11,556 nt of DNA from a virus. Lineage: Duplodnaviria > Heunggongvirae > Uroviricota > Caudoviricetes. The DNA is taken from the IMG/VR virus record IMGVR_UViG_2713897055_000008, positions 1-11,556 of that record; one strand, given 5' to 3'. Position numbers and translations under genes: made by a program. Each line of letters opens with the position of its first letter. Position 1 is the first letter of the stretch. Below are positions 3 to 11,556 of this stretch, one piece after another. The notes under the pieces were generated by a model. That model saw only the letters and a program-made list of their open reading frames with translations. It searched no databases and was not told the DNA's origin.

Positions 3-491
<489 letters not shown>

Positions 492-920
492 GATGGGCGT
501 GATGCCACTGCACTGGAAATACTCCCTGCCATTGACGATCAAAAATCCTTTCCCCGGGGCACGTATGCCACACACCAGGGCGGACTCTGGCGGGCGTATG
601 AAAAAACGCACGGGATGCGGGGATGGGAATGCCTGGTTGACGGGGTGGCGGATATTGACGTCAGCATGACGGGTGAACGGTTGTTCTCTGTGGTGGTCCG
701 GCAGAGCAGTGGCCAGCGTACGGAAAAAACATTTTCCCTGCCGGTGATGCTCTACCGCGGTGTGTTCAGAGCCGGTGAAACCTACCACCCCGGCGATACG
801 GTGACGTGGGGGGGGCTCGCTGTGGCACTGCAACAGTATGACCGGTGATAAACCCGGAGAAGCTCATTCATCAGGCTGGACCCTGGCTGCAAAACGTGGG
901 CGGGATGCAGGAGGCGGAAA

Positions 921-1247
921 ATGACGGCATTACTGACGCTGGAAGAGATCAAGGCACATCTGCGTGTCGACCATGACGCGGATGATGACATGCTGATGGA
1001 CAAGGTTCGTCAGGCTACCGCCGTGCTGCTGGCCTACATTCAGGGCAGCCGGGATAAGGTGATTCGTGAGGACGGTGAACTGATCCCGGGCGAGGCATTA
1101 ACCCGGATGAAGGGGGCTGCCATGCGACTGACCGGGATGCTGTACCGGAATCCGGATCTTGCGGAGCGGGAAGAACTGCTTCAGGGGGAGCTGCCGTTTT
1201 CTGTTTCCGTGCTGATTTACGATTTGCGTTGTCCGACGGTGTTATGA
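921..1247 (+). CDS. Head-tail connector protein, phage gp6-like family
   Basis: ATG 921 with AGGAGG 7 nt upstream. The 108-aa product MTALLTLEEIKAHLRVD..DDDMLMDK...YRNPD matches the pattern I recall for gp6-like connector proteins; position just upstream of head-closure and tail genes fits. Confidence 0.65.
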   Translation: MTALLTLEEIKAHLRVDHDADDDMLMDKVRQATAVLLAYIQGSRDKVIREDGELIPGEALTRMKGAAMRLTGMLYRNPDLAEREELLQGELPFSVSVLIYDLRCPTVL

Positions 1248-1256
1248 GGAGGGGGA

Positions 1257-1607
1257 ATGGCAATATCTGCAGGTCGTCTGACACAGATGATAAGTGTTCT
1301 GAACCCGGTGTTAACCCGTAATGCTGCCGGAGAAATGACGGAAGAATGGGTGTCATGCGGGAAAATTCATGCGGATATCCGTGGCAGGAGCAGCCGGGAG
1401 CGGATGCAGTCCGGTGCGGAAATGGCGCAGGCGGAAATCCGCATCTGGGTGCGCGGTCAGTCCGGTCGGGAAATCACGGCAGCGTCACGACTTCATGTGC
1501 TGAGTGGTCCATGGCGTGACCGGATCCTGAACGTTGTCGGGCTGCCCGTGCCGGATGCGACCGGCGGGCGTCTGGAAATTCTCTGTCGGCTGGGAGGGGA
1601 AAAATGA
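1257..1607 (+). CDS. Head closure / head-tail adaptor protein (SPP1 gp16-like, Phage_H_T_join-type)
   Basis: ATG 1257 preceded by GAGGAGGGGG; 116 aa; the EW..CGKIHADIRGRSSRERMQSGAEMAQAEIRIWVR segment fits the head-closure pattern. Its stop overlaps the next start (ATGA at 1604-1607). Confidence 0.6.
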   Translation: MAISAGRLTQMISVLNPVLTRNAAGEMTEEWVSCGKIHADIRGRSSRERMQSGAEMAQAEIRIWVRGQSGREITAASRLHVLSGPWRDRILNVVGLPVPDATGGRLEILCRLGGEK

Positions 1608-2050
1608 TCGAAACCCTGCTGGATTTTTCGGGGCTGGAGGACATCAGCCGCGATTTGCAGCTTCTGAGTGGTGCGGAAAATAACCGGGTGCTGCGTGAGG
1701 CAACCCGTGCGGGTGCGAATGTGCTGAAAGAAGAAGTGGTGTCACGGGCACCGGTGCGCAGGGGAAAACTGCGCCGCAATGTGGTGGTCCTTTCCCGGCG
1801 CTCCCGCGATGGCGGTATGGAATCCGGTGTCCATATCCGTGGTGTTAATCCGGACACCGGTAACAGCGATAACACCATGAAGGCGGATAACCCGCGCAAT
1901 GCTTTCTACTGGCGGTTTGTGGAAATGGGGACCGTGAATATGCCACCGCACCCGTTTGTACGCCCGGCGTTTGATGTGCGCAGTGAACAGGCAGCGCAGG
2001 TGGCGATTGCGCGGATGAACCGGGCCATTGATGAGGTACTGAGACGATGA
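1604..2050 (+). CDS. HK97 gp10-family tail component / tail completion protein
   Basis: 148 aa, translationally coupled at both ends (ATGA overlaps at 1604 and 2047). The motif FYWRFVEMGTVNMPPHPFVRPAFD is characteristic of the HK97 gp10-like family as I recall it. Confidence 0.65.
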   Translation: MIETLLDFSGLEDISRDLQLLSGAENNRVLREATRAGANVLKEEVVSRAPVRRGKLRRNVVVLSRRSRDGGMESGVHIRGVNPDTGNSDNTMKADNPRNAFYWRFVEMGTVNMPPHPFVRPAFDVRSEQAAQVAIARMNRAIDEVLRR

Positions 2051-2391
2051 CGGAGGCGGATTTGTATCCTCATCTGGCGCATCTTGCCGGCGGGCAGGTG
2101 TACCCGTATGTGGTCCCCCTGCTGGATGGCAGGCCGTCGGTGGCGCTTCCGTGGGTGGTTTTCAGCCTGATTTCATCGGTGTCAGCGGACGTGATGGGCG
2201 GGCAGGCGGAGTCCTCAGTGTCGGTGCAGATAGACGTTTATGCCGGGACTGTGACGCAGGCGCGTCAGATACGTCAGGACGCCCGTGAAGCCATAATGCT
2301 GCTGGCCCCGGGATCCGTCAGTGAAATGCAGGACTATATTCCGGAAAACCGCTGTTACCGTGCAACCCTGGAGTTTCAGGTCACGGTGTGA
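2047..2391 (+). CDS. DUF3168-like tail terminator / tail completion protein
   Basis: 114 aa coupled to the upstream gene; hydrophobic beta-rich pattern (YPYVVPLLDGRPSVALPWVVFSL...VQIDVYAG) and position immediately before the major tail gene. Confidence 0.5.
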   Translation: MTEADLYPHLAHLAGGQVYPYVVPLLDGRPSVALPWVVFSLISSVSADVMGGQAESSVSVQIDVYAGTVTQARQIRQDAREAIMLLAPGSVSEMQDYIPENRCYRATLEFQVTV

Positions 2392-2419
2392 CTTTTTCTT
2401 TTTTCTACAAAACCCATAC

Positions 2420-2440
2420 CCCGCCGCGTGCGGGTTTTTT
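2420..2440 (+). terminator. Intrinsic-terminator-like hairpin between tail terminator gene and major tail gene
   Basis: CCCGC (2420-2424), 5-nt loop, GCGGG (2430-2434), then TTTTTT (2435-2440). Confidence 0.45.
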
Positions 2441-2456
2441 ATTATCAGGAGGCAGA

Positions 2457-3173
2457 ATGTCTGCTTTGTATGAACGCTCACAGCTGACGCAGGTGATGAT
2501 TTCATCTGCCCCGGCGACTGCTGAAACTATGGATAAGGCGGAATATCTGCGCCTGGACTGCACCATCAAGGAAGTCCAGTTCACCGCCGGTCAGAAACAG
2601 GATATTGATGTGACCACGCTCTGCTCCACAGAGCAGGAGAACATCAATGGTCTGGGGGCGTCGTCCGAGATTTCCATGTCGGGTAATTTTTATCTGAATC
2701 AGGCCCAGAACGCCCTGCGTGATGCTTATGACAATGACGCGTTGTATGCGTTTAAGGTGCTGTTTCCGTCCGGTAAGGGCTTTAAATTCCTGGCGGAAGT
2801 GCGCCAGCACACCTGGTCATCCGGTACCAACGGCGTGGTGGCTGCAACGTTCTCACTGCGTCTGAAAGGCAAACCGGTGTCCTTTGTGGTACCGCTGGCG
2901 TTTGTGAAAAATCTGGATAAGACACTTACCGTGAATACCGGTGTGCTGCTGACACTGTCAGTCAGTGCCAACGGGGGAACGCCGCCGTATAAATACGCCT
3001 GGAAGAAGGATGGTCAGCCGGTTGACGGGCAGACGACAGACACCTTCAGTAAGCCCGGTGCGCAGTCCGCTGATGCGGGGAAATATACCTGCGTGGTGAC
3101 CGATTCGGCAGAGAAAGCACAGAGTGTGACGTCTGTTGAATGCACCGTGACAGTGAGCGCAGCCGCCGGATAA
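2457..3173 (+). CDS. Major tail (tube) protein with C-terminal Ig-like domain
   Basis: ATG 2457 with CAGGAGG 5-7 nt upstream; the track's start at 2388 would run through the terminator hairpin. 238 aa. C-terminal ~80 aa (TLTVNTGVLLTLSVSANGGTPPYKYAWKKDGQPV...GKYTCVVTD...VECTVTV) looks like an Ig-like decoration domain. Position before the G/GT chaperone pair. Confidence 0.75.
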   Translation: MSALYERSQLTQVMISSAPATAETMDKAEYLRLDCTIKEVQFTAGQKQDIDVTTLCSTEQENINGLGASSEISMSGNFYLNQAQNALRDAYDNDALYAFKVLFPSGKGFKFLAEVRQHTWSSGTNGVVAATFSLRLKGKPVSFVVPLAFVKNLDKTLTVNTGVLLTLSVSANGGTPPYKYAWKKDGQPVDGQTTDTFSKPGAQSADAGKYTCVVTDSAEKAQSVTSVECTVTVSAAAG

Positions 3174-3562: not shown

Positions 3563-3867
3563 CCCGCCCGGAAATTCGCTTTCTGATGCGACTTGCGCTC
3601 CGTCTGGGGCGCACCTTATCCGAACTGCGGCACAGCCTGAGTGCGAGCGAGGCGATGATGTGGATGGAGTTCGACAGGATATCCCCGCTGGGTGATGAGC
3701 GCGGGGATATCCGTAATGCACAGATCGTGAAAGCGGTTTTCGGGGCACAGGGGATGAATGTTGCACTGAAGGACGCCATGCTCTGCTGGGGCGAGGATGA
3801 GGATAAGCCGGAGGTGGATCCGTTTGCGGCGCTGGAAGACGCGCTGAGCTTTGCAGCACAGTCATGA
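3188..3867 (+). CDS. Tail assembly chaperone fusion (gpGT analogue) made by a -1 programmed frameshift at 3553-3559
   Basis: The -1 frame is open from the slippery site A AAA AAG (3553-3559) to TGA 3865-3867 with no stops; the frame relationship (2 to 1) matches the conserved G/GT arrangement of siphovirus tail chaperones. Coordinates span both frames. Confidence 0.6.
3553..3559 (+). promoter_or_regulatory. -1 ribosomal frameshift slippery heptamer A AAA AAG
   Basis: Read directly: aga aaa aag tag in the G frame; the heptamer is the last two sense codons before the G stop. Confidence 0.6.
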
Positions 3868-3876
3868 ATGATGAGA

Positions 3877-3896
3877 ACCGCTGAGGCGGTTTTTTT
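3877..3896 (+). terminator. Weak intrinsic-terminator-like hairpin between GT and tape-measure gene
   Basis: ACCGC (3877-3881), loop TGAG, GCGGT (3886-3890), then a run of six T (3891-3896). Confidence 0.35.
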
Positions 3897-3914: not shown

Positions 3915-5831
3915 ATGGCGACGTTACGTGAACTGATTATCAAAATTTCGGCAAATTCACAGTCATTCCAGTCGGAGATCCAGCGGGCGTCCCGTATGGG
4001 CAGTGAATATTACCGGACCCTGCAGAATGGCGGACGTCAGGCTGCTGCGGCAGCCAGGGAGCAGCGCCGGGCTCTGGCTGAGCTGAACAGCCAGTTGATG
4101 GAAATCCGCGCTTCGGCTGTCGGAATGACCGGTGCGGTTGCCGGTGCCTTTGCCACCGGACACCTGATTTCGCTGGCGGATGAATGGAGCTCCGTGAACG
4201 CCCGTCTGAAACAGGCGTCGCAGTCATCGGATGAATTTGCGTCATCACAGAAAGTACTGATGGATATCAGCCAGCGGACAGGCACCGCATTTTCGGATAA
4301 TGCGGCCCTGTTTGCCCGTTCGGCTGCCTCGATGCGTGAATATGGTTACAGTGCTGATGATGTGCTGAAGGTGACAGAGGCCATTTCGACAGGGCTGAAA
4401 ATTTCCGGTGCCAGTACGGCAGAGGCGGGGTCGGTGATCACCCAGTTCAGCCAGGCGCTGGCACAGGGTGTGTTACGCGGTGAGGAATTTAATTCGGTCA
4501 ATGAAAGTGGGGACCGGATCATTCGCGCACTGGCTGCAGGCATGGGCGTGGCCCGTAAAGATCTGAAGGCGATGGCGGACGATGGTCAACTGACGGCGGA
4601 TAAAGTCGTTCCCGCGTTAATCAGCCAGCTGGGGATATTGCGTGATGAATATGCAGCCATGCCGGAAACGGTGGCTGACGGGATCACGAAGGTGGAAAAC
4701 GCCTTTATGGCCTGGGTGGGTGGCGCGAATGAGGCCAGCGGAGCGACGAAAACGCTCTCCGGCGTGCTGAACGGTGTGGCCGGAAATATCGATACCGTGG
4801 CAACAGCTGCGGGTGTGCTGGTTGCTGTCGGGGTGGCCCGGTACTTTGGCAATATGGCATCCGGTGTGGGAAAGGCCACGACAGAACTGCTTGCTGCGAA
4901 GTCTGGCACTGTTGCCCTGGCAGCGGCGCAGGCAGATGCTGCGGTTCAGGTGCAACGTAAGGCGGCGGCTGACGCTCTGGCGGCAGAACGTGCCTGGCAA
5001 CTGGCACAGGCAGAACTCGCCGTGGCCAGAAATACCAGTGCGGAGGCGCTGGTCACACAGAATGCCGTCGCAAAACGTCGGGCCATGATTGTGGCCAATG
5101 CTGCACTGGTGCAGTCGAATCATGCAGTGGCGGCCTCGGGGAAGGCGCTGGAGAATGCCACGTCGGTTACGGGAATGCTGAAAAGTGGCGCTGCATCCCT
5201 GCTTTCTCTGGTCGGCGGGATACCCGGTTTACTGATGCTTGGGGCCGGTGCCTGGTACACGGTGTACCAGCGTCAGGAACAGGCCAGGGAGTCCGCGCGC
5301 CAGTATGCATCGACGATTGATGAAATCCGGGCAAAGCTGCCAGGAATGACCCTTCCGGAACTGGCTGATAATGAGGGTAAAACCCGCGAAGCACTGGAAG
5401 AGCAGAATCGTCTGATTGCTGAGCAGGAAAGTAAAGTCCGGGGACTGAAAACACAGATTGCTGACTATCAGCGCTGGCTGCAGGAAAATCCACAGGGTGG
5501 TTCAGGTGCGGAGATTATAACCCACGGCCTTGCTGAGGCAACCGGCAGGCTGGCGGTTGAACAGTCACGACTGACACAGATGCAGGAAAGGGCGAGGTCT
5601 GTACAGGAAACGCTGGCGTCACTGGAGTACAACCGTGTAGCGAGGATACGTGAGGAGGCGGCAGAGCAGAACAGGGCATACCAGGCATTACTGCAGATGA
5701 ATGTTCAGCATACGGAATTCAACCGCCTGCTGGGGCTGGGTAATGAACTGCTGCAACAGCGTCAGGGACTGGCGAGTGTACCGCTGCGACTGCCACAGGC
5801 CACTCTGGATGATAAACAGCAGGCGCCCTGA
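3915..5831 (+). CDS. H: Tail tape measure protein, N-terminal segment (frame 3)
   Basis: ATG 3915 with GGAG 8 nt upstream; 638 aa, Ala/Gln-rich and largely helical, with an N-terminal region typical of lambda-family tape measure proteins; ends at TGA 5829-5831 straight after a CCC run. Confidence 0.85.
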   Translation: MATLRELIIKISANSQSFQSEIQRASRMGSEYYRTLQNGGRQAAAAAREQRRALAELNSQLMEIRASAVGMTGAVAGAFATGHLISLADEWSSVNARLKQASQSSDEFASSQKVLMDISQRTGTAFSDNAALFARSAASMREYGYSADDVLKVTEAISTGLKISGASTAEAGSVITQFSQALAQGVLRGEEFNSVNESGDRIIRALAAGMGVARKDLKAMADDGQLTADKVVPALISQLGILRDEYAAMPETVADGITKVENAFMAWVGGANEASGATKTLSGVLNGVAGNIDTVATAAGVLVAVGVARYFGNMASGVGKATTELLAAKSGTVALAAAQADAAVQVQRKAAADALAAERAWQLAQAELAVARNTSAEALVTQNAVAKRRAMIVANAALVQSNHAVAASGKALENATSVTGMLKSGAASLLSLVGGIPGLLMLGAGAWYTVYQRQEQARESARQYASTIDEIRAKLPGMTLPELADNEGKTREALEEQNRLIAEQESKVRGLKTQIADYQRWLQENPQGGSGAEIITHGLAEATGRLAVEQSRLTQMQERARSVQETLASLEYNRVARIREEAAEQNRAYQALLQMNVQHTEFNRLLGLGNELLQQRQGLASVPLRLPQATLDDKQQAP

Positions 5832-7180
5832 ATAACACAGAGCGTCAACTTGCCCTGTCCCGGCTGAAAGGGGAAGAAAAAGAGCGTGCCCGGCTGGGGT
5901 ATGCGGCGGATGACCTTGGTCTGGTGGGGGATACGTATCAGGAGGCGAGGCAGCGTTACATCCGTAATTCGATGGAAGCCTGGCGCAATAATGAGGCGAA
6001 TAAACCCAAATCCCGGGCCGGAAAATCAGGGGCGGAAAAAGCGGAAGACAGTTTTTCCCGTCTGCTGAAGCAGCAGAAGGAACAACTGGCACTGGCCGGG
6101 AAGAATACAGAACTGGCGAAGCTGAAGTACCAGACCTCGCAGGGCGAGCTGAAAACCCTGACGGAGATTCAGAAGCAGGAGCTGCTGCGCAATGCTGCCC
6201 TGATTGACCAGAAGAAAATCCGGGAGCAGTTACGGGCCCGGGAGGAGACCCTGAAAAATGATAATGCAGACGCAAGGGCATCAAATGACGCAGAGCTGCT
6301 GGGATACGGGCAGGGTGAGCGGATCCGAGAACGGATGCGGGAGCTGCAGCAGATTCGTGACGGCTACCGCCAGAAGGATGCGGACCTGCAGTCTCAGTAT
6401 CAGACAGGGGATATCAGTGAGGATTTTTACAGACAGGCGCTGGCGCAGAATGCGCAGTATCTGAGAGAGCGTCTGAAAGACCAGGAGGCTTTTTATGCCG
6501 AATCGGATGCGCAGCGTGCTGACTGGCAGAAAGGGCTGCAGGAAGGGCTAAGTAACTGGGTGGACAGCGCATCAGATTACGCTTCACAGGCAGCACAGCT
6601 TGCGACAGACGGTATCTCAGGGATGGTAAATAACATCACGGATATGCTGAACGGAAATAAAGTGGAATGGCGCAGCTGGGCAGCATCAATCCTGCAGGAA
6701 ATATCAAAAGTCCTTATGAATGCGGCCATTGTCAACGGCATTAAGATGGCGGCAAACAGTATGTCCGGTGCAGGAGGATTTTTCGGCAGTATAGGCAACT
6801 GGCTGGGTGGCGCGGTGGCAAATGCAAAAGGCGGCGTTTATACCTCGGCAAACCTGAGTGCATACAGTAACAGTATTGTGGACACGCCCACGTACTTTGC
6901 CTTTGCAAAAGGGGCAGGGCTGATGGGGGAGGCCGGACCTGAAGCCATAATGCCCCTGACCCGGGCAGCGGATGGTTCACTCGGCGTGCGTGCGGTGGGC
7001 AGTATGAACGGCAGTGCGGGTCTGGTGTATTCTCCGGTGTACCACATCGCCATTCAGAATGACGGCGCTAACGGGCAGATAGGGCCGGAAGCGGCGGGCA
7101 CCCTTGTGCAACTGATTGACCAGCGGGTACAGGCGGTGATGTTATCCATGCGTCGTGACGGAGGAATGCTGAGTGGATGA
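5816..7180 (+). CDS. H: Tail tape measure protein, C-terminal segment (frame 2; no credible independent start)
   Basis: Frame 2 is open from 5816, overlapping the end of the frame-3 segment; first in-frame start is a GTG at 5924 with no Shine-Dalgarno. The C-terminal part (GGVYTSANLSAYSNSIVDTPTYFAFAKGAGLMGEAGPEAIMPL...) resembles the lambda gpH C-terminal region as I recall it. TGA 7178-7180 overlaps the M start. Confidence 0.8.
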   Translation, partial: TAGALNNTERQLALSRLKGEEKERARLGYAADDLGLVGDTYQEARQRYIRNSMEAWRNNEANKPKSRAGKSGAEKAEDSFSRLLKQQKEQLALAGKNTELAKLKYQTSQGELKTLTEIQKQELLRNAALIDQKKIREQLRAREETLKNDNADARASNDAELLGYGQGERIRERMRELQQIRDGYRQKDADLQSQYQTGDISEDFYRQALAQNAQYLRERLKDQEAFYAESDAQRADWQKGLQEGLSNWVDSASDYASQAAQLATDGISGMVNNITDMLNGNKVEWRSWAASILQEISKVLMNAAIVNGIKMAANSMSGAGGFFGSIGNWLGGAVANAKGGVYTSANLSAYSNSIVDTPTYFAFAKGAGLMGEAGPEAIMPLTRAADGSLGVRAVGSMNGSAGLVYSPVYHIAIQNDGANGQIGPEAAGTLVQLIDQRVQAVMLSMRRDGGMLSG

Positions 7181-8222: not shown

Positions 8223-8966
8223 ATGACACAGACTGAATCAGCGATTCTGGCGCATGCCCGGCGGTGTGCGCCAGCGGAGTCGTGCGGCTTCGTGATAAGC
8301 ACCCCGGAGGGGGAGCGGTACCAGCCCTGCGTGAATATCTCCGCAGAGCCGGAGGCGTATTTTCGTATTGCGCCGGAGGACTGGCTGCAGGCACAGATGC
8401 AGGGGGAGATTGTGGCGCTGGTCCACAGTCATCCCGGTGGTCTGCCCTGGCTGAGCGAGGCGGACCGGCGGCTGCAGATAAAGAGTGCCCTGCCCTGGTG
8501 GCTGGTCTGTCGGGGTGAAATTCACCGGTTCCGCTGTGTGCCGCACCTGACCGGACGGCGCTTTGAACACGGTGTGACGGACTGTTACACCCTGTTCCGG
8601 GATGCATACCATCTGGCGGGGATAACGCTGCCGGATTTTGTGCGTGAGGATGACTGGTGGCGCAACGGCCAGAACCTGTACCTGGACAACCTGGCGGACA
8701 ATGGATTTTACCGGGTGTCTCCGTCCTGTGCACAGGCAGGCGATATCCTGCTGTGCTGCTTTGGCGCATCGGTGCCGAATCATGCCGCCATTTACTGTGG
8801 CAACGGTGAACTGCTTCACCATATACCTGAACAACTGAGTAAACGGGAGAGGTATTCTGAAAAATGGCAACGACGAACGCATTCTGTCTGGCGTCACCGC
8901 CACTGGTCCACATCTGCCTTCACGGGGATTTACAACGATTTGGTCGCCGCATCAGTCTGTATGTGA
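8223..8966 (+). CDS. K: Tail tip assembly protein K (JAMM/MPN plus NlpC/P60 domains)
   Basis: ATG 8223 (MTQTESAILAHARR...); JAMM motif HSHPGGLPWLSEAD at 8424-8465; NlpC/P60 catalytic Cys (GVTDCYTLF) at 8583-8585 with downstream His. The frame stays open to TGA 8964-8966, overlapping I by 103 nt. Confidence 0.85.
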   Translation: MTQTESAILAHARRCAPAESCGFVISTPEGERYQPCVNISAEPEAYFRIAPEDWLQAQMQGEIVALVHSHPGGLPWLSEADRRLQIKSALPWWLVCRGEIHRFRCVPHLTGRRFEHGVTDCYTLFRDAYHLAGITLPDFVREDDWWRNGQNLYLDNLADNGFYRVSPSCAQAGDILLCCFGASVPNHAAIYCGNGELLHHIPEQLSKRERYSEKWQRRTHSVWRHRHWSTSAFTGIYNDLVAASVCM

Positions 8967-9508
8967 ACACGGCAGCGGAGGCCATCCGTGCCCTGTCGCA
9001 GCAGGTGCCGGGATTCCGCTGTCAGATGAACGAAGGCTGGTACCAGATACGTATTGCCGGTGAGGATACCGCGCCGGACCAGATATCGCCCCGACTGCAT
9101 GAGCCACTGAACCCGGGGGATGTCATTCATCTGGTTCCCCGGGCAGAAGGTGCCAAAAGTGGCGGAGTGTTTCAGGCCGTGCTTGGCGTTGCGCTGGTTG
9201 CGGCAGCTATCTGGATGCCGGGTATCGGTATTGCAGCCAGCAACATCATGTTTTCCATGGGCTCTGCAATGGCACTGGGTGGTGTGGCCCAGATGCTGGC
9301 CCCGAAGGCAAAGACGCCGGAGTACAAAAGCACGGATAACGGCAGACAGAACACGTATTTTTCGTCACTGGACAACATGATTGCTCAGGGGAATCCGGTG
9401 CCGGTGCCTTACGGTGAAATGCTGGTTGGTTCACGACGGATATCCCAGGACATCAGCACCCGTGATGAGGGCGGTGACGGGAAAGTGGTGGTTATCGGGC
9501 GGGGATGA
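8864..9508 (+). CDS. I: Tail tip assembly protein I
   Basis: ATG 8864 is the first start after in-frame stops; 214 aa; N-terminus (...ICLHGDLQRFGRRI...AEAIRAL...) and C-terminal region (KSGGVFQ...NTYFSSLDNM...VVVIGRG) resemble lambda gpI as recalled. Confidence 0.88.
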   Translation: MATTNAFCLASPPLVHICLHGDLQRFGRRISLYVNTAAEAIRALSQQVPGFRCQMNEGWYQIRIAGEDTAPDQISPRLHEPLNPGDVIHLVPRAEGAKSGGVFQAVLGVALVAAAIWMPGIGIAASNIMFSMGSAMALGGVAQMLAPKAKTPEYKSTDNGRQNTYFSSLDNMIAQGNPVPVPYGEMLVGSRRISQDISTRDEGGDGKVVVIGRG

Positions 9509-9512
9509 AAAT

Positions 9513-9547
9513 AAAAAAAAATCCCGCAGTGCTCTGTAGCTGCGGGA
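9513..9547 (-). terminator. Intrinsic-terminator-like element, minus-strand orientation (unit 1)
   Basis: Stem TCCCGCAG (9522-9529) / CTGCGGGA (9540-9547), 10-nt loop; on the minus strand it is followed by nine T (9513-9521). Confidence 0.55.
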
Positions 9548-9644
9548 AGAGATACGAAGATTAACTTTAAGGAATTTTTCATTATTCTGGCAGATGAACT
9601 GTAACGCAGCGTGATTATGAGCACTACAGTCAGTGTGCGGAAAT

Positions 9645-9671
9645 GTGAATAAACTCAGAATTTTTATTCAC
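9645..9671. repeat. Perfect 9-bp inverted repeat GTGAATAAA-N9-TTTATTCAC (unit 1)
   Basis: Read directly; degenerate in units 2 and 4. Confidence 0.5.
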
Positions 9672-9734
9672 GGGAAGGGAGGGGCCGGATATCGGTGGCA
9701 GAGGACAGAAGGCATCATGCCGGGTTCAGGGGAT

Positions 9735-9767
9735 AAAAAAAATCCCGCAGTACTCCGTGCTGCGGGA
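9735..9767 (-). terminator. Intrinsic-terminator-like element, minus-strand orientation (unit 2)
   Basis: Stem 9743-9750 / 9760-9767 (same 8-bp sequence as unit 1), 9-nt loop; eight T on the minus strand (9735-9742). Confidence 0.55.
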
Positions 9768-9958
9768 AGAGAACGATGTTGACTAACCTGTTGGCGTTTT
9801 ATTTTTATTGACCCGAAGAAACTGTAACCTGCCGGAATGCACTCTGCCACGGAGAATGACGGAAAATGTGAAGAAAATCAGAGTTTTTATTTATCCCGTA
9901 CATTCGTCTCTGGCGACAGAGTGGCGTCAGTAATGTCCGTGATACTGAGGGGGGAATT

Positions 9959-9997
9959 AAAAAATCTCCCGTAATACACCTGGATATTGACGGGAGA
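9959..9997 (-). terminator. Terminator-like hairpin, minus-strand orientation (unit 3, variant stem)
   Basis: Stem TCTCCCGT (9965-9972) / ACGGGAGA (9990-9997) with an inner AATA/TATT extension; six T on the minus strand (9959-9964). Different stem sequence from the other units but same fold. Confidence 0.4.
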
Positions 9998-10099
9998 AAC
10001 GAATAGTCACCTTAAGGAGTAGTTTTGATTATTGCCTGTAATCAGCGGGCGAATTGTAACGTATGGTGATTATGAGTGCCACAGGTAATTTGCAGAAAT

Positions 10100-10126
10100 G
10101 TGAATAAATTCAGAATTTTTATTCAC
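10100..10126. repeat. Perfect 9-bp inverted repeat GTGAATAAA-N9-TTTATTCAC (unit 3)
   Basis: Read directly; identical arms and spacing to the unit-1 copy. Confidence 0.5.
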
Positions 10127-10188
10127 AGGAAGGGGCTGCGGGATATCGGTGGCAGAGGACAGAAAATATCAGGCCGGGTTTAAGGGAT

Positions 10189-10222
10189 AAAAAAATCCCG
10201 CAGAGTCAGCGGAGCTGCGGGA
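10189..10222 (-). terminator. Intrinsic-terminator-like element, minus-strand orientation (unit 4)
   Basis: Stem 10196-10203 / 10215-10222 (TCCCGCAG/CTGCGGGA), 11-nt loop; seven T on the minus strand (10189-10195). Confidence 0.55.
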
Positions 10223-10395
10223 GAGAACGATGAAGATTAACGTTATGGAGTTATTTTTCAGGCATCAAAAAAGTAACGCAGCGTCATTATTGCGGCTACA
10301 GGCAATTTGCAGAAATGTGAAGAATTTCAGAAATTTTATTCCGTCATGACACAGGCACCTCCGGGGTGCCTGTTGTTTTTGGGCATAAACAGATT

Positions 10396-10422
10396 CAGAC
10401 ATCAGACATCAGACATCAGACA
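10396..10422 (+). repeat. Heptanucleotide microsatellite (CAGACAT) x ~3.9 just upstream of the J ribosome-binding site
   Basis: Read directly: cagacat cagacat cagacat cagaca, followed by GGAGAGGGGG and the GTG start at 10438. Confidence 0.8.
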
Positions 10423-10437
10423 GGAGAGGGGGACAGA

Positions 10438-11556
10438 GTGGGTAAAGGGGGCGGCAAGGGGCACACACCGCGTGAGGCGAAGGACAATCTCAAATCCACG
10501 CAGATGATGAGCGTGATTGATGCCATTGGTGAGGGACCGGTGGAAGGCCCGGTGAAGGGACTGCAGAGTATTCTGGTGAACAAAACCCCGCTGACGGACA
10601 CGGACGGTAATCCCGTGATACACGGTGTGACCGCCGTCTGGCGTGCCGGGGAGCAGGAGCAGACACCGCCGGAAGGCTTTGAGTCCTCCGGGGCAGAAAC
10701 CGCACTGGGCGTGGAGGTGTCGAAGGCAAAGCCGGTGACGCGCACCATCACGTCAGCGAACATTGACCGTCTGCGGGTCACCTTCGGGGTGCAGTCACTG
10801 GTGGAGACCACCTCAAAGGGTGACCGTAATCCCTCTTCTGTCCGCCTGCTGATTCAGCTTGAGCGTAACGGTAACTGGGTGACGGAGAAGGATGTCACCA
10901 TTAACGGCAAGACCACCTCGCAGTACCTGACGTCGGTGATTCTGAATAATCTCCCTGAGCGCCCCTTTAACATCCGGATGGTCAGGGAGACGGCGGACAG
11001 CACCACGGACCAGCTGCAGAACAGAACGCTGTGGTCGTCATACACCGAAATCATCGATGTGAAACAGTGCTACCCGAACACGGCCATTGTGGGGCTGCAG
11101 GTGGATGCGGAGCAGTTCGGTGGCCAGCAGCTGACGGTGAACTACCATATCCGTGGTCGCATCATTCAGGTGCCGTCAAACTATGACCCGGAAAAACGCA
11201 CCTACAGCGGTATCTGGGACGGCAGCCTGAAACCGGCATACAGCAATAACCCGGCCTGGTGCCTGTGGGACATGCTGACCCACCCGCGCTACGGGATGGG
11301 AAAACGCCTGGGGGCCGCGGATGTGGACAAGTGGGCACTGTATGCCATCGGGCAGTACTGCGACCAGACGGTCCCGGATGGTTTCGGGGGCACAGAGCCG
11401 CGGATGACCTTTAATGCGTACCTGTCACAGCAGCGTAAGGTGTGGGATGTCCTGGGGGATTTCTGCTCGGCGATGCGCTGTATGCCGGTATGGAACGGTC
11501 AGACGCTGACGTTCGTTCAGGACCGTCCGTCGGATGTGGTGTGGCCGTACACGAAC
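10438..11556 (+). CDS. J: Tail tip / host specificity protein J, N-terminal 373 codons (continues past window end)
   Basis: GTG 10438 preceded by GGAGAGGGGG. Translation (M)GKGGGKGHTPREAKDNLKSTQMMSVIDAIGEGPVEGPV...WCLWDMLTHPRYGMGKRLG... is near-identical to the lambda J N-terminus as recalled. Absent from the ORF track because there is no stop inside the window. Confidence 0.93.
   Translation, partial: MGKGGGKGHTPREAKDNLKSTQMMSVIDAIGEGPVEGPVKGLQSILVNKTPLTDTDGNPVIHGVTAVWRAGEQEQTPPEGFESSGAETALGVEVSKAKPVTRTITSANIDRLRVTFGVQSLVETTSKGDRNPSSVRLLIQLERNGNWVTEKDVTINGKTTSQYLTSVILNNLPERPFNIRMVRETADSTTDQLQNRTLWSSYTEIIDVKQCYPNTAIVGLQVDAEQFGGQQLTVNYHIRGRIIQVPSNYDPEKRTYSGIWDGSLKPAYSNNPAWCLWDMLTHPRYGMGKRLGAADVDKWALYAIGQYCDQTVPDGFGGTEPRMTFNAYLSQQRKVWDVLGDFCSAMRCMPVWNGQTLTFVQDRPSDVVWPYTN

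Follow-up and report, generated by a model that had tools for sequence, protein, structure and literature searches.

Bacterial surface genes offer well-known examples of simple-sequence repeats (SSRs) that tune expression, whereas such repeats have seldom been reported from the untranslated leaders of phage structural genes. Among the bacterial cases, the (ATCTTTC)n repeat of hmw1A/hmw2A was reportedly described by Dawid et al. in 1999. VNTRs employed for MLVA of E. coli O157/STEC are of a related kind: they are short-unit (6–7 bp) intergenic repeats whose copy number varies between lineages and is stable within clones. The hmw1A/hmw2A (ATCTTTC)n array of H. influenzae is an SSR of the 5′-UTR (Rapun-Araiz et al. 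2025, PMC12721329). Translation is enhanced by ACA trinucleotides located just upstream of the Shine-Dalgarno (SD) sequence, whose effects are additive and whose position is flexible (Yang et al. 2014, PMC3879156). Lastly, the Hfq-dependent sRNA PasB is encoded in the I–J spacer of lambdoid prophages (Pearl Mizrahi et al. 2021, PMC8550237; Zhu, Shabalina & Storz 2026 preprint), and maps to the minus strand at NC_011601 1466343..1466261 (PMC8550237 supplementary table).

Here we describe a tandem array located directly upstream of gene J in a stretch of 11,556 nt of tailed-phage DNA (IMG/VR record IMGVR_UViG_2713897055_000008), referred to below as the window. The array is a VNTR with a heptanucleotide unit, lies in the untranslated J leader, and characterizes one family of leader/J-start alleles found in lambdoid, mostly STEC, prophages. 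As an intergenic SSR/VNTR of a 5′ leader it is apparently undescribed; a literature search with the doubled heptamer TCAGACATCAGACA found no paper containing it, a topical search on tandem repeats upstream of J gave nothing relevant, and no record of the array as an MLVA marker was found.

Results

The window is a lambda-like prophage tail region

Comparison to PHROG profiles identified the window as a lambda-like prophage tail region, carrying a portal-like ORF, the major tail protein gene V, the chaperone G, the tape measure gene H, M, L, K, I and the 5′ part of J. The tape measure gene (3915–7180) is split into two ORFs (3915–5831 and 5924–7180) that match positions 3–623 and 655–1116 of the same PHROG. 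The split is consistent with a 1-nt deletion in a C-run (5826–5831), the region measuring 551 nt in the window versus 552 nt in the 12 best-matching relatives listed. Either the prophage is defective or the deletion is a sequencing error in a homopolymer.

Two observations concern other parts of the window. A 162-bp tandem repeat (162–454; 1.8 copies, 93% identity) lies within an ORF (195–848) whose match is to the C-terminal portion of PHROG ‘portal protein’ profiles; duplication of a protein domain probably accounts for it. Between the G/T chaperone ORFs and the tape measure gene, a match resembling isrK, an Hfq-binding prophage sRNA (Rfam), was detected at 3829–3896 (+). It ends in a hairpin and a U-run and is sub-threshold (27.1 bits versus a gathering score of 50, E = 0.014).

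A perfect heptamer array adjoins the J ribosome-binding site

Tandem Repeats Finder (TRF) identified a perfect (TCAGACA)x4.0 array at 10395–10422 (+ strand; period 7, 100% matches, score 56). An earlier note on this DNA had reported about four tandem copies of a 7-bp unit upstream of J, read as CAGACAT at 10396–10422; this is the same array in another register, and the copy number is borne out. The 21-nt three-unit pattern occurs at a single site in the window, with 0 occurrences expected from 200 dinucleotide shuffles, and a pattern search found no complementary copy of the array elsewhere in the window. The array is thus a perfect tandem repeat with a unit in the 1–9 bp range of SSRs, located within a 5′ leader. 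It had also been described as ending about 16 nt before the SD, which proved incorrect: the array ends at 10422 and abuts the SD tract GGAGAGGGGG, which starts at 10423, and it is the GTG at 10438 that lies 15 nt from the array end.

The J ribosome-binding region (10423–10437, +) consists of GGAGAGGGGG (10423–10432) followed by the spacer ACAGA, and is identical in all copy-number variants. The 5′ part of gene J, encoding the central tail fibre/host-specificity protein, follows at 10438–11556 (+); it opens with GTG and runs off the window, which contains its first 1.1 kb (PHROG 31 ‘central tail fiber J’, E = 1.7e-235; PGAP annotation of relatives). The GTG at 10438 is the true J start, since the N-terminus MGKGGGKGHTPREAKDNLKS parallels that of lambda J, the same start is annotated by PGAP in relatives, and the PHROG match agrees. 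Within the J coding region, an imperfect 12-nt repeat of low score (10528–10558; 2.7 copies, 80% matches) encodes a GPVEGPVKG-like motif, and probably reflects a repeated peptide motif.

The proposal that the array is non-coding holds, since natural alleles differ by 7, 14, 21 and 28 nt, a series of length differences that is intolerable to any reading frame. ORFs do run across the array (10307–10507, +; 10265–10402, −), and a coding role was rejected because neither could survive the natural 7-nt length changes.

On the 5′ side, a terminator scan and folding located an intrinsic terminator on the tail-operon strand (10351–10380, +), with a 10-bp stem including six G-C pairs, a 3-nt loop and the tail TGTTTTTGGG. 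The stem spans 10351–10373 and the T-run reaches 10380; the fold has an energy of −21.7 kcal/mol (z = −3.2), and an equivalent hairpin is found in E2348/69 and lambda. The leader segment GGGCATAAACAGAT (10381–10394, +) connects the T-run to the array and ends in ACAGAT, a degenerate partial unit. It is kept as CATAAACAGAT in all retrieved loci, CATAAACAGAT being itself part of the search pattern.

In lambda (NC_001416), the 60-bp I–J gap (15445–15504) contains a terminator-like hairpin (AAACCGCCTGCGGGCGGTTTTGT), and a hairpin just before the J ribosome-binding site (RBS) thus seems to be a conserved design, even without sRNA module or repeat. Regarding the terminator loop of the window (10358–10360), the sequence reads CACCTCC versus CACCCTCC in every close relative fetched, which is a single-C deletion in a C-run. 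As this deletion and that in the tape measure gene are both located in C-runs, they could be sequencing errors.

The suggestion that the repeat is an SSR of a promoter or a 5′ leader stands for the leader and fails for the promoter: the array lies inside the late operon, 3′ of the terminator, and a promoter scan predicted no sigma-70 promoter in or beside it, so that a promoter-spacer SSR is rejected. We infer that the array is transcribed only within the late operon or by read-through from upstream. An Rfam scan of the whole window (E ≤ 1) returned no match at the array or in the I–J spacer, its only matches being the isrK-like one and a spurious one to RNase P. The heptamer fits none of the motifs that we take to represent the Pho box, NarL heptamers, IHF, the DnaA box, Hfq ARN and CsrA GGA.

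The I–J spacer carries four PasB-like modules

Gene I, which encodes a tail assembly protein, lies 5′ of the I–J spacer (8864–9508, +; PHROG 32, E = 1.1e-79; annotation of relatives). The spacer measures 929 bp in the window, versus 60 bp in lambda and ~240 bp in VT1-Sakai and E2348/69. Repeat families D1–D6 resolve it (9509–10394) into four tandem modules of ~220 bp, each of which carries on the minus strand a hairpin and U-run, CCCGCAG...CUGCGGGAUUUUUUU (elsewhere given as CCCGCAG..CTGCGGGATTTTTTT). The CCCGCAG...CUGCGGGAUUUUUUU form agrees with the northern probe and with the published coordinates of PasB of EPEC E2348/69, where PasB sits between I (ending at 1466255) and J (starting at 1466496), antisense to both.

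The four modules were aligned with E2348/69 PasB and the VT1-Sakai spacer. This alignment and the repeat families place PasB-like modules on the minus strand at 9509–9595 (M1), 9733–9815 (M2, more diverged), 9960–10045 (M3, more diverged and with a different terminator stem) and 10188–10272 (M4). The last of these, antisense to the tail operon and with the CCCGCAG...CUGCGGGAUUUUUUU terminator, is identified by its alignment with E2348/69 PasB, the mapping in PMC8550237 and its fold (z = −2.66), and is the orthologue of the single VT1-Sakai module. By sequence and position the four modules are putative sRNA genes of the PasB class, that is, ~83-nt Hfq-dependent RNAs antisense to the tail operon. 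The array does not belong to this class: it lies outside the modules (9509–10272), from which the convergent + strand terminator separates it.

A single module is present in most relatives, VT1-Sakai and E2348/69 among them, and others carry two or three (I–J gaps of ~470 and ~730 bp in loci L140, L143 and L146). Tandem amplification of PasB-like genes may be undescribed, and for those who study sRNAs the spacer, with its one to four tandem PasB-like modules, probably holds more of interest than the array. Some module junctions look like relics of the I 3′ end (9684–9741, 10138–10195) and of the J start (9912–9924, similar to 10429–10441), which suggests unequal recombination between prophages. 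The AgvB/AsxR anti-sRNA and svsR were considered as context and set aside, being sited at the PR′ moron site and the cI 3′ end, respectively, and not between I and J.

At the PasB type locus (E2348/69 PP6), J is preceded by a different leader, devoid of the repeat. Indeed, E2348/69 and 02E060 show the same sRNA-plus-terminator layout with another J leader and no repeat, and the repeat is also missing from lambda; it is thus a trait of one family of leader/J-start alleles.

Related prophages differ in copy number

The earlier note had proposed comparing copy number (n) across related prophages, and this comparison revealed a variable array. Representatives of every class (n = 2, 3, 4, 5, 6 and 8) were fetched, and in all of them the arrays were perfect and the immediate flanks identical. 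An IMG/VR scan, in which the flanks were fixed and the sequence between them was left free, yielded 94 loci; when these are taken with four heptamer-bearing E. coli/phage loci, 90 have n = 2, five n = 3, two n = 4, and one has n = 2 with an extra G. A second IMG/VR scan added three further n = 4 alleles, which belong to a different haplotype. Metagenome contigs gave n = 2 in 27/27 cases. A J leader of the array family is present in 1,422 of the 5,426 complete E. coli genomes, at 4,627 places (median of 2 prophage places per genome carrying it), nearly all with n = 2. Across IMG/VR, metagenome contigs and complete E. coli genomes, >95% of loci are at n = 2. A collection of contigs with one genome per species showed no match with two patterns, and thus provides no evidence for the array outside E. 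coli-type prophages.

The ground state is a 14-nt doublet, (TCAGACA)2, at nearly every locus of the leader family, and arrays of 3–8 perfect units occur in few backgrounds; the window allele has four units. Among the 60 records closest to the window, 29 have n = 2, 12 have n = 3, eight each have n = 4 and n = 5, one has n = 6 and two have n = 8, these values being derived from match lengths, with nine loci verified base by base. The expanded range (2, 3, 4, 5, 6 and 8 perfect copies) occurs in one group of non-O157 STEC prophages. A synthetic 10-unit query of complete E. coli genomes, with which long alleles come first in the ranking, found no allele with n = 7 or n > 8.

At the lower end, no n = 1 allele was seen in the IMG/VR and metagenome scans, nor among the listed matches to a one-unit query. 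That query gave 25 records in identity bands of at least 95%; the 15 listed were all two-piece matches to alleles with n of at least 4, and known alleles of this type account for the count of 25. The doublet is kept in diverged alleles, L134 and L135 having exactly two units each while being ~80–85% identical in the surrounding spacer. Together with the absence of n = 1, this would be a weak hint that at least two units are needed. The absence of n = 1 could be due to chance, since the thousands of loci are far from independent, and a recent shared ancestor may be enough to explain why the doublet is conserved; moreover, the flanks were fixed in the search patterns.

Array length changes on identical flanks

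For 17 loci, selected to cover a range of n, the flanks were compared over 200 nt on the 5′ side and 1,100 nt on the 3′ side, leaving out the array. JNE151685 (n = 8, Japan) and FWSEC0008 (O91:H21, n = 5, Germany) have 0 SNPs in the 1,300 nt of flank, and there are 26 SNPs between two n = 8 alleles and 20 between two n = 5 alleles. Copy number therefore differs among otherwise near-identical alleles, as in a contingency locus. When mapped on a neighbour-joining flank tree, n requires 12 Fitch steps versus a permutation mean of 10.7, and thus carries no phylogenetic signal, a result that overstates the mutation rate since the loci were picked for different n and prophage tail regions recombine.

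Independent expansions are found on three flank haplotypes: TTGTTTTTGGG, with n = 2–8; TCGTTTTTGGGG with the right flank ...gacaga, in O157:H7 Z1835 (n = 4); and TCGTTTTTGGGG with the right flank ...gaccga, in IMG/VR loci L147–149 (n = 4). The view that the array is a slipped-strand mispairing site is supported by the variation in n, by the lack of SNPs over 1,300 nt between an n = 5 and an n = 8 allele, and by the recurrence of expansions on three haplotypes; from this pattern we infer that slipped-strand mispairing drives the length change.

Copy number is the same within clonal or re-sequenced sets (94-3024 and its ATCC deposit; Z1835/Z1836; UC4224/UC4315/UC4316; OkiPb01694/OkiPb01697). The evidence on rate from clonal populations, which consists of these four isolate sets and of the predominance of n = 2, is drawn from assemblies, and argues against very high rates of length change. 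As judged from the alleles compared, the doublet rarely expands, and once at least three units are present n changes faster than point mutations accumulate in the flanks. Because clonal isolates share n, the mutation rate looks VNTR-like, and not like that of a classical high-frequency phase-variation switch.

The leader is predicted to be open at all copy numbers

The leader (10381–10445) folds with an energy of only −0.5 kcal/mol (z = +2.29) and is less folded than 200/200 shuffles. Folding was also performed on a series of constructs with n = 0–10, extending from the terminator to codon ~28. Mean unpaired probabilities ranged from 0.39 to 0.53 for the SD and from 0.44 to 0.63 for the start codon, with no trend; thus, no structural switch is predicted. 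No stable pairing partner for the array appeared in the folds at any n. The expectation that copy number alters leader length or structure hence holds for length, with 2–8 units in relatives, and not for structure, predicted accessibility being flat over n = 0–10.

Each unit contains one ACA, the last of which ends at the SD, and the tract is predicted to be unstructured, as in ACA enhancers. With one ACA per unit and the enhancer precedent, a graded positive effect of n on J translation is plausible. Pairing of the leader with GcvB, E2348/69 PasB and the four PasB-like RNAs of the window was evaluated with RNAduplex, in a crude test involving mononucleotide shuffles and long duplexes; none performed better than with shuffled leaders (z from −0.01 to +2.7), the z values for the GcvB–leader duplex being 0.07 and 1.07 versus shuffled controls.

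Discussion

We consider it reasonably probable, given the sequence comparisons, that the array is a VNTR of largely neutral character, located in a J leader that is open and rich in ACA, with at most a graded and modest effect on J translation. Copy number would change by replication slippage or by unequal exchange between identical units. In the RNA, the tract would act as an unstructured A/C-rich spacer between the I–J terminator hairpin and the SD, keeping the RBS open, and would supply one ACA motif per unit; differences in n may then cause a graded, modest change in J translation at most, not an on/off response. Most of the observed copy-number polymorphism is probably neutral, and an enhancer or spacer role of the tract is what its composition and one precedent suggest. 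The window prophage may itself be defective due to the tape-measure frameshift, in which case J expression would be moot for the window copy.

A different reading of the same polymorphism is that of a contingency locus, in which slippage changes leader length and the number of ACA motifs and thereby heritably tunes J translation, with selection favouring variation in tail-tip supply or infectivity. The position of the SSR directly 5′ of the RBS of a host-interaction gene fits this reading, as do a copy number that is polymorphic (2–8), homoplasic and changes on identical flanks, the recurrence of expansions on three haplotypes, the absence of n = 1, the additivity of ACA motifs, and the precedent of a 7-bp 5′-UTR SSR controlling an adhesin, the (ATCTTTC)n repeat of hmw1A (PMC12721329). 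We nevertheless regard it as unlikely, since >95% of loci are fixed at n = 2, arrays are short (≤8 units), clonal isolates share n, no structural change is predicted with n, and the leader has no hairpin partner comparable to the G-rich arm of hmw. In addition, J would be made only in lytic growth and at fixed stoichiometry, which makes a benefit of variable dosage doubtful. Its fullest form appears more doubtful still, namely that of a phage-borne contingency locus where slippage would add or remove ACA enhancer units at the J RBS, so that STEC prophage sub-lineages would differ heritably in J output and hence in phage yield or infectivity, including those of Stx-converting phages, with fewer than two units being selected against.

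Alternatively, J translation or mRNA fate might be controlled by a trans-acting factor, either a host or prophage sRNA (GcvB, PasB-like) or an RNA- or DNA-binding protein, with the array as its multivalent site. A C/A-rich single strand beside the SD is indeed the classic type of GcvB target, and sRNA genes are present in the same I–J spacer; but the duplex energies of GcvB, PasB and the PasB-like RNAs are no better than those of shuffled leaders, the unit as read from the sequence has neither an ARN triplet run for Hfq nor a GGA for CsrA, neighbouring sites, given a 7-bp period, would not share a face of the DNA helix, and the window has no complementary copy of the array. This makes such a role improbable. 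That the array is an artefact, either an assembly error or a coincidental short repeat without biological variability, is scarcely credible. The two single-C deletions in C-runs of the window, versus all relatives, do suggest homopolymer error in the source assembly, but such errors do not make 7-nt units, and the chance expectation for the repeat is 0. Perfect arrays of 2–8 units are, moreover, present in >40 independent complete genomes and in IMG/VR contigs, and the long alleles are thus unlikely to be assembly artefacts.

If n does affect J output, the array would be a cheap heritable dial on the supply of virion tail tips in Shiga-toxin-related prophages, and would bear on the efficiency with which Shiga-toxin-related phages spread. 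Even if neutral, it is a lineage-informative VNTR within a multi-copy prophage region, and calls for caution with short-read assemblies of STEC prophages.

When compared to known systems, the mostly neutral VNTR that we favour resembles the VNTRs of MLVA in its short unit, its intergenic position, and a copy number that differs between lineages and is stable in clones; its presence at several prophage places per genome would complicate typing. In kind, the closest counterpart is the (ATCTTTC)n 5′-UTR repeat of hmw1A, which is also a perfect 7-bp tandem array in the transcribed leader of a host-attachment gene, with n polymorphic between isolates. However, hmw arrays have at least 11 units in nature, versus 2–8, mostly 2, in the J leader; hmw repeats pair with a G-rich arm to form a hairpin cleaved by RNase III, whereas the J leader has no predicted partner; and hmw switches at high frequency within populations, whereas clonal isolates share the n of the J array. 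Unlike hmw, J belongs to a phage late operon. The ACA or C/A-rich enhancers of yifK and dppA (Yang, Figueroa-Bossi & Bossi 2014, PMC3879156) also present repeated ACA motifs in an unstructured tract directly 5′ of the SD. In yifK and dppA these motifs do not form an exact tandem repeat, and GcvB silences them, whereas in the J leader GcvB pairing is not predicted and the number of motifs would vary by slippage.
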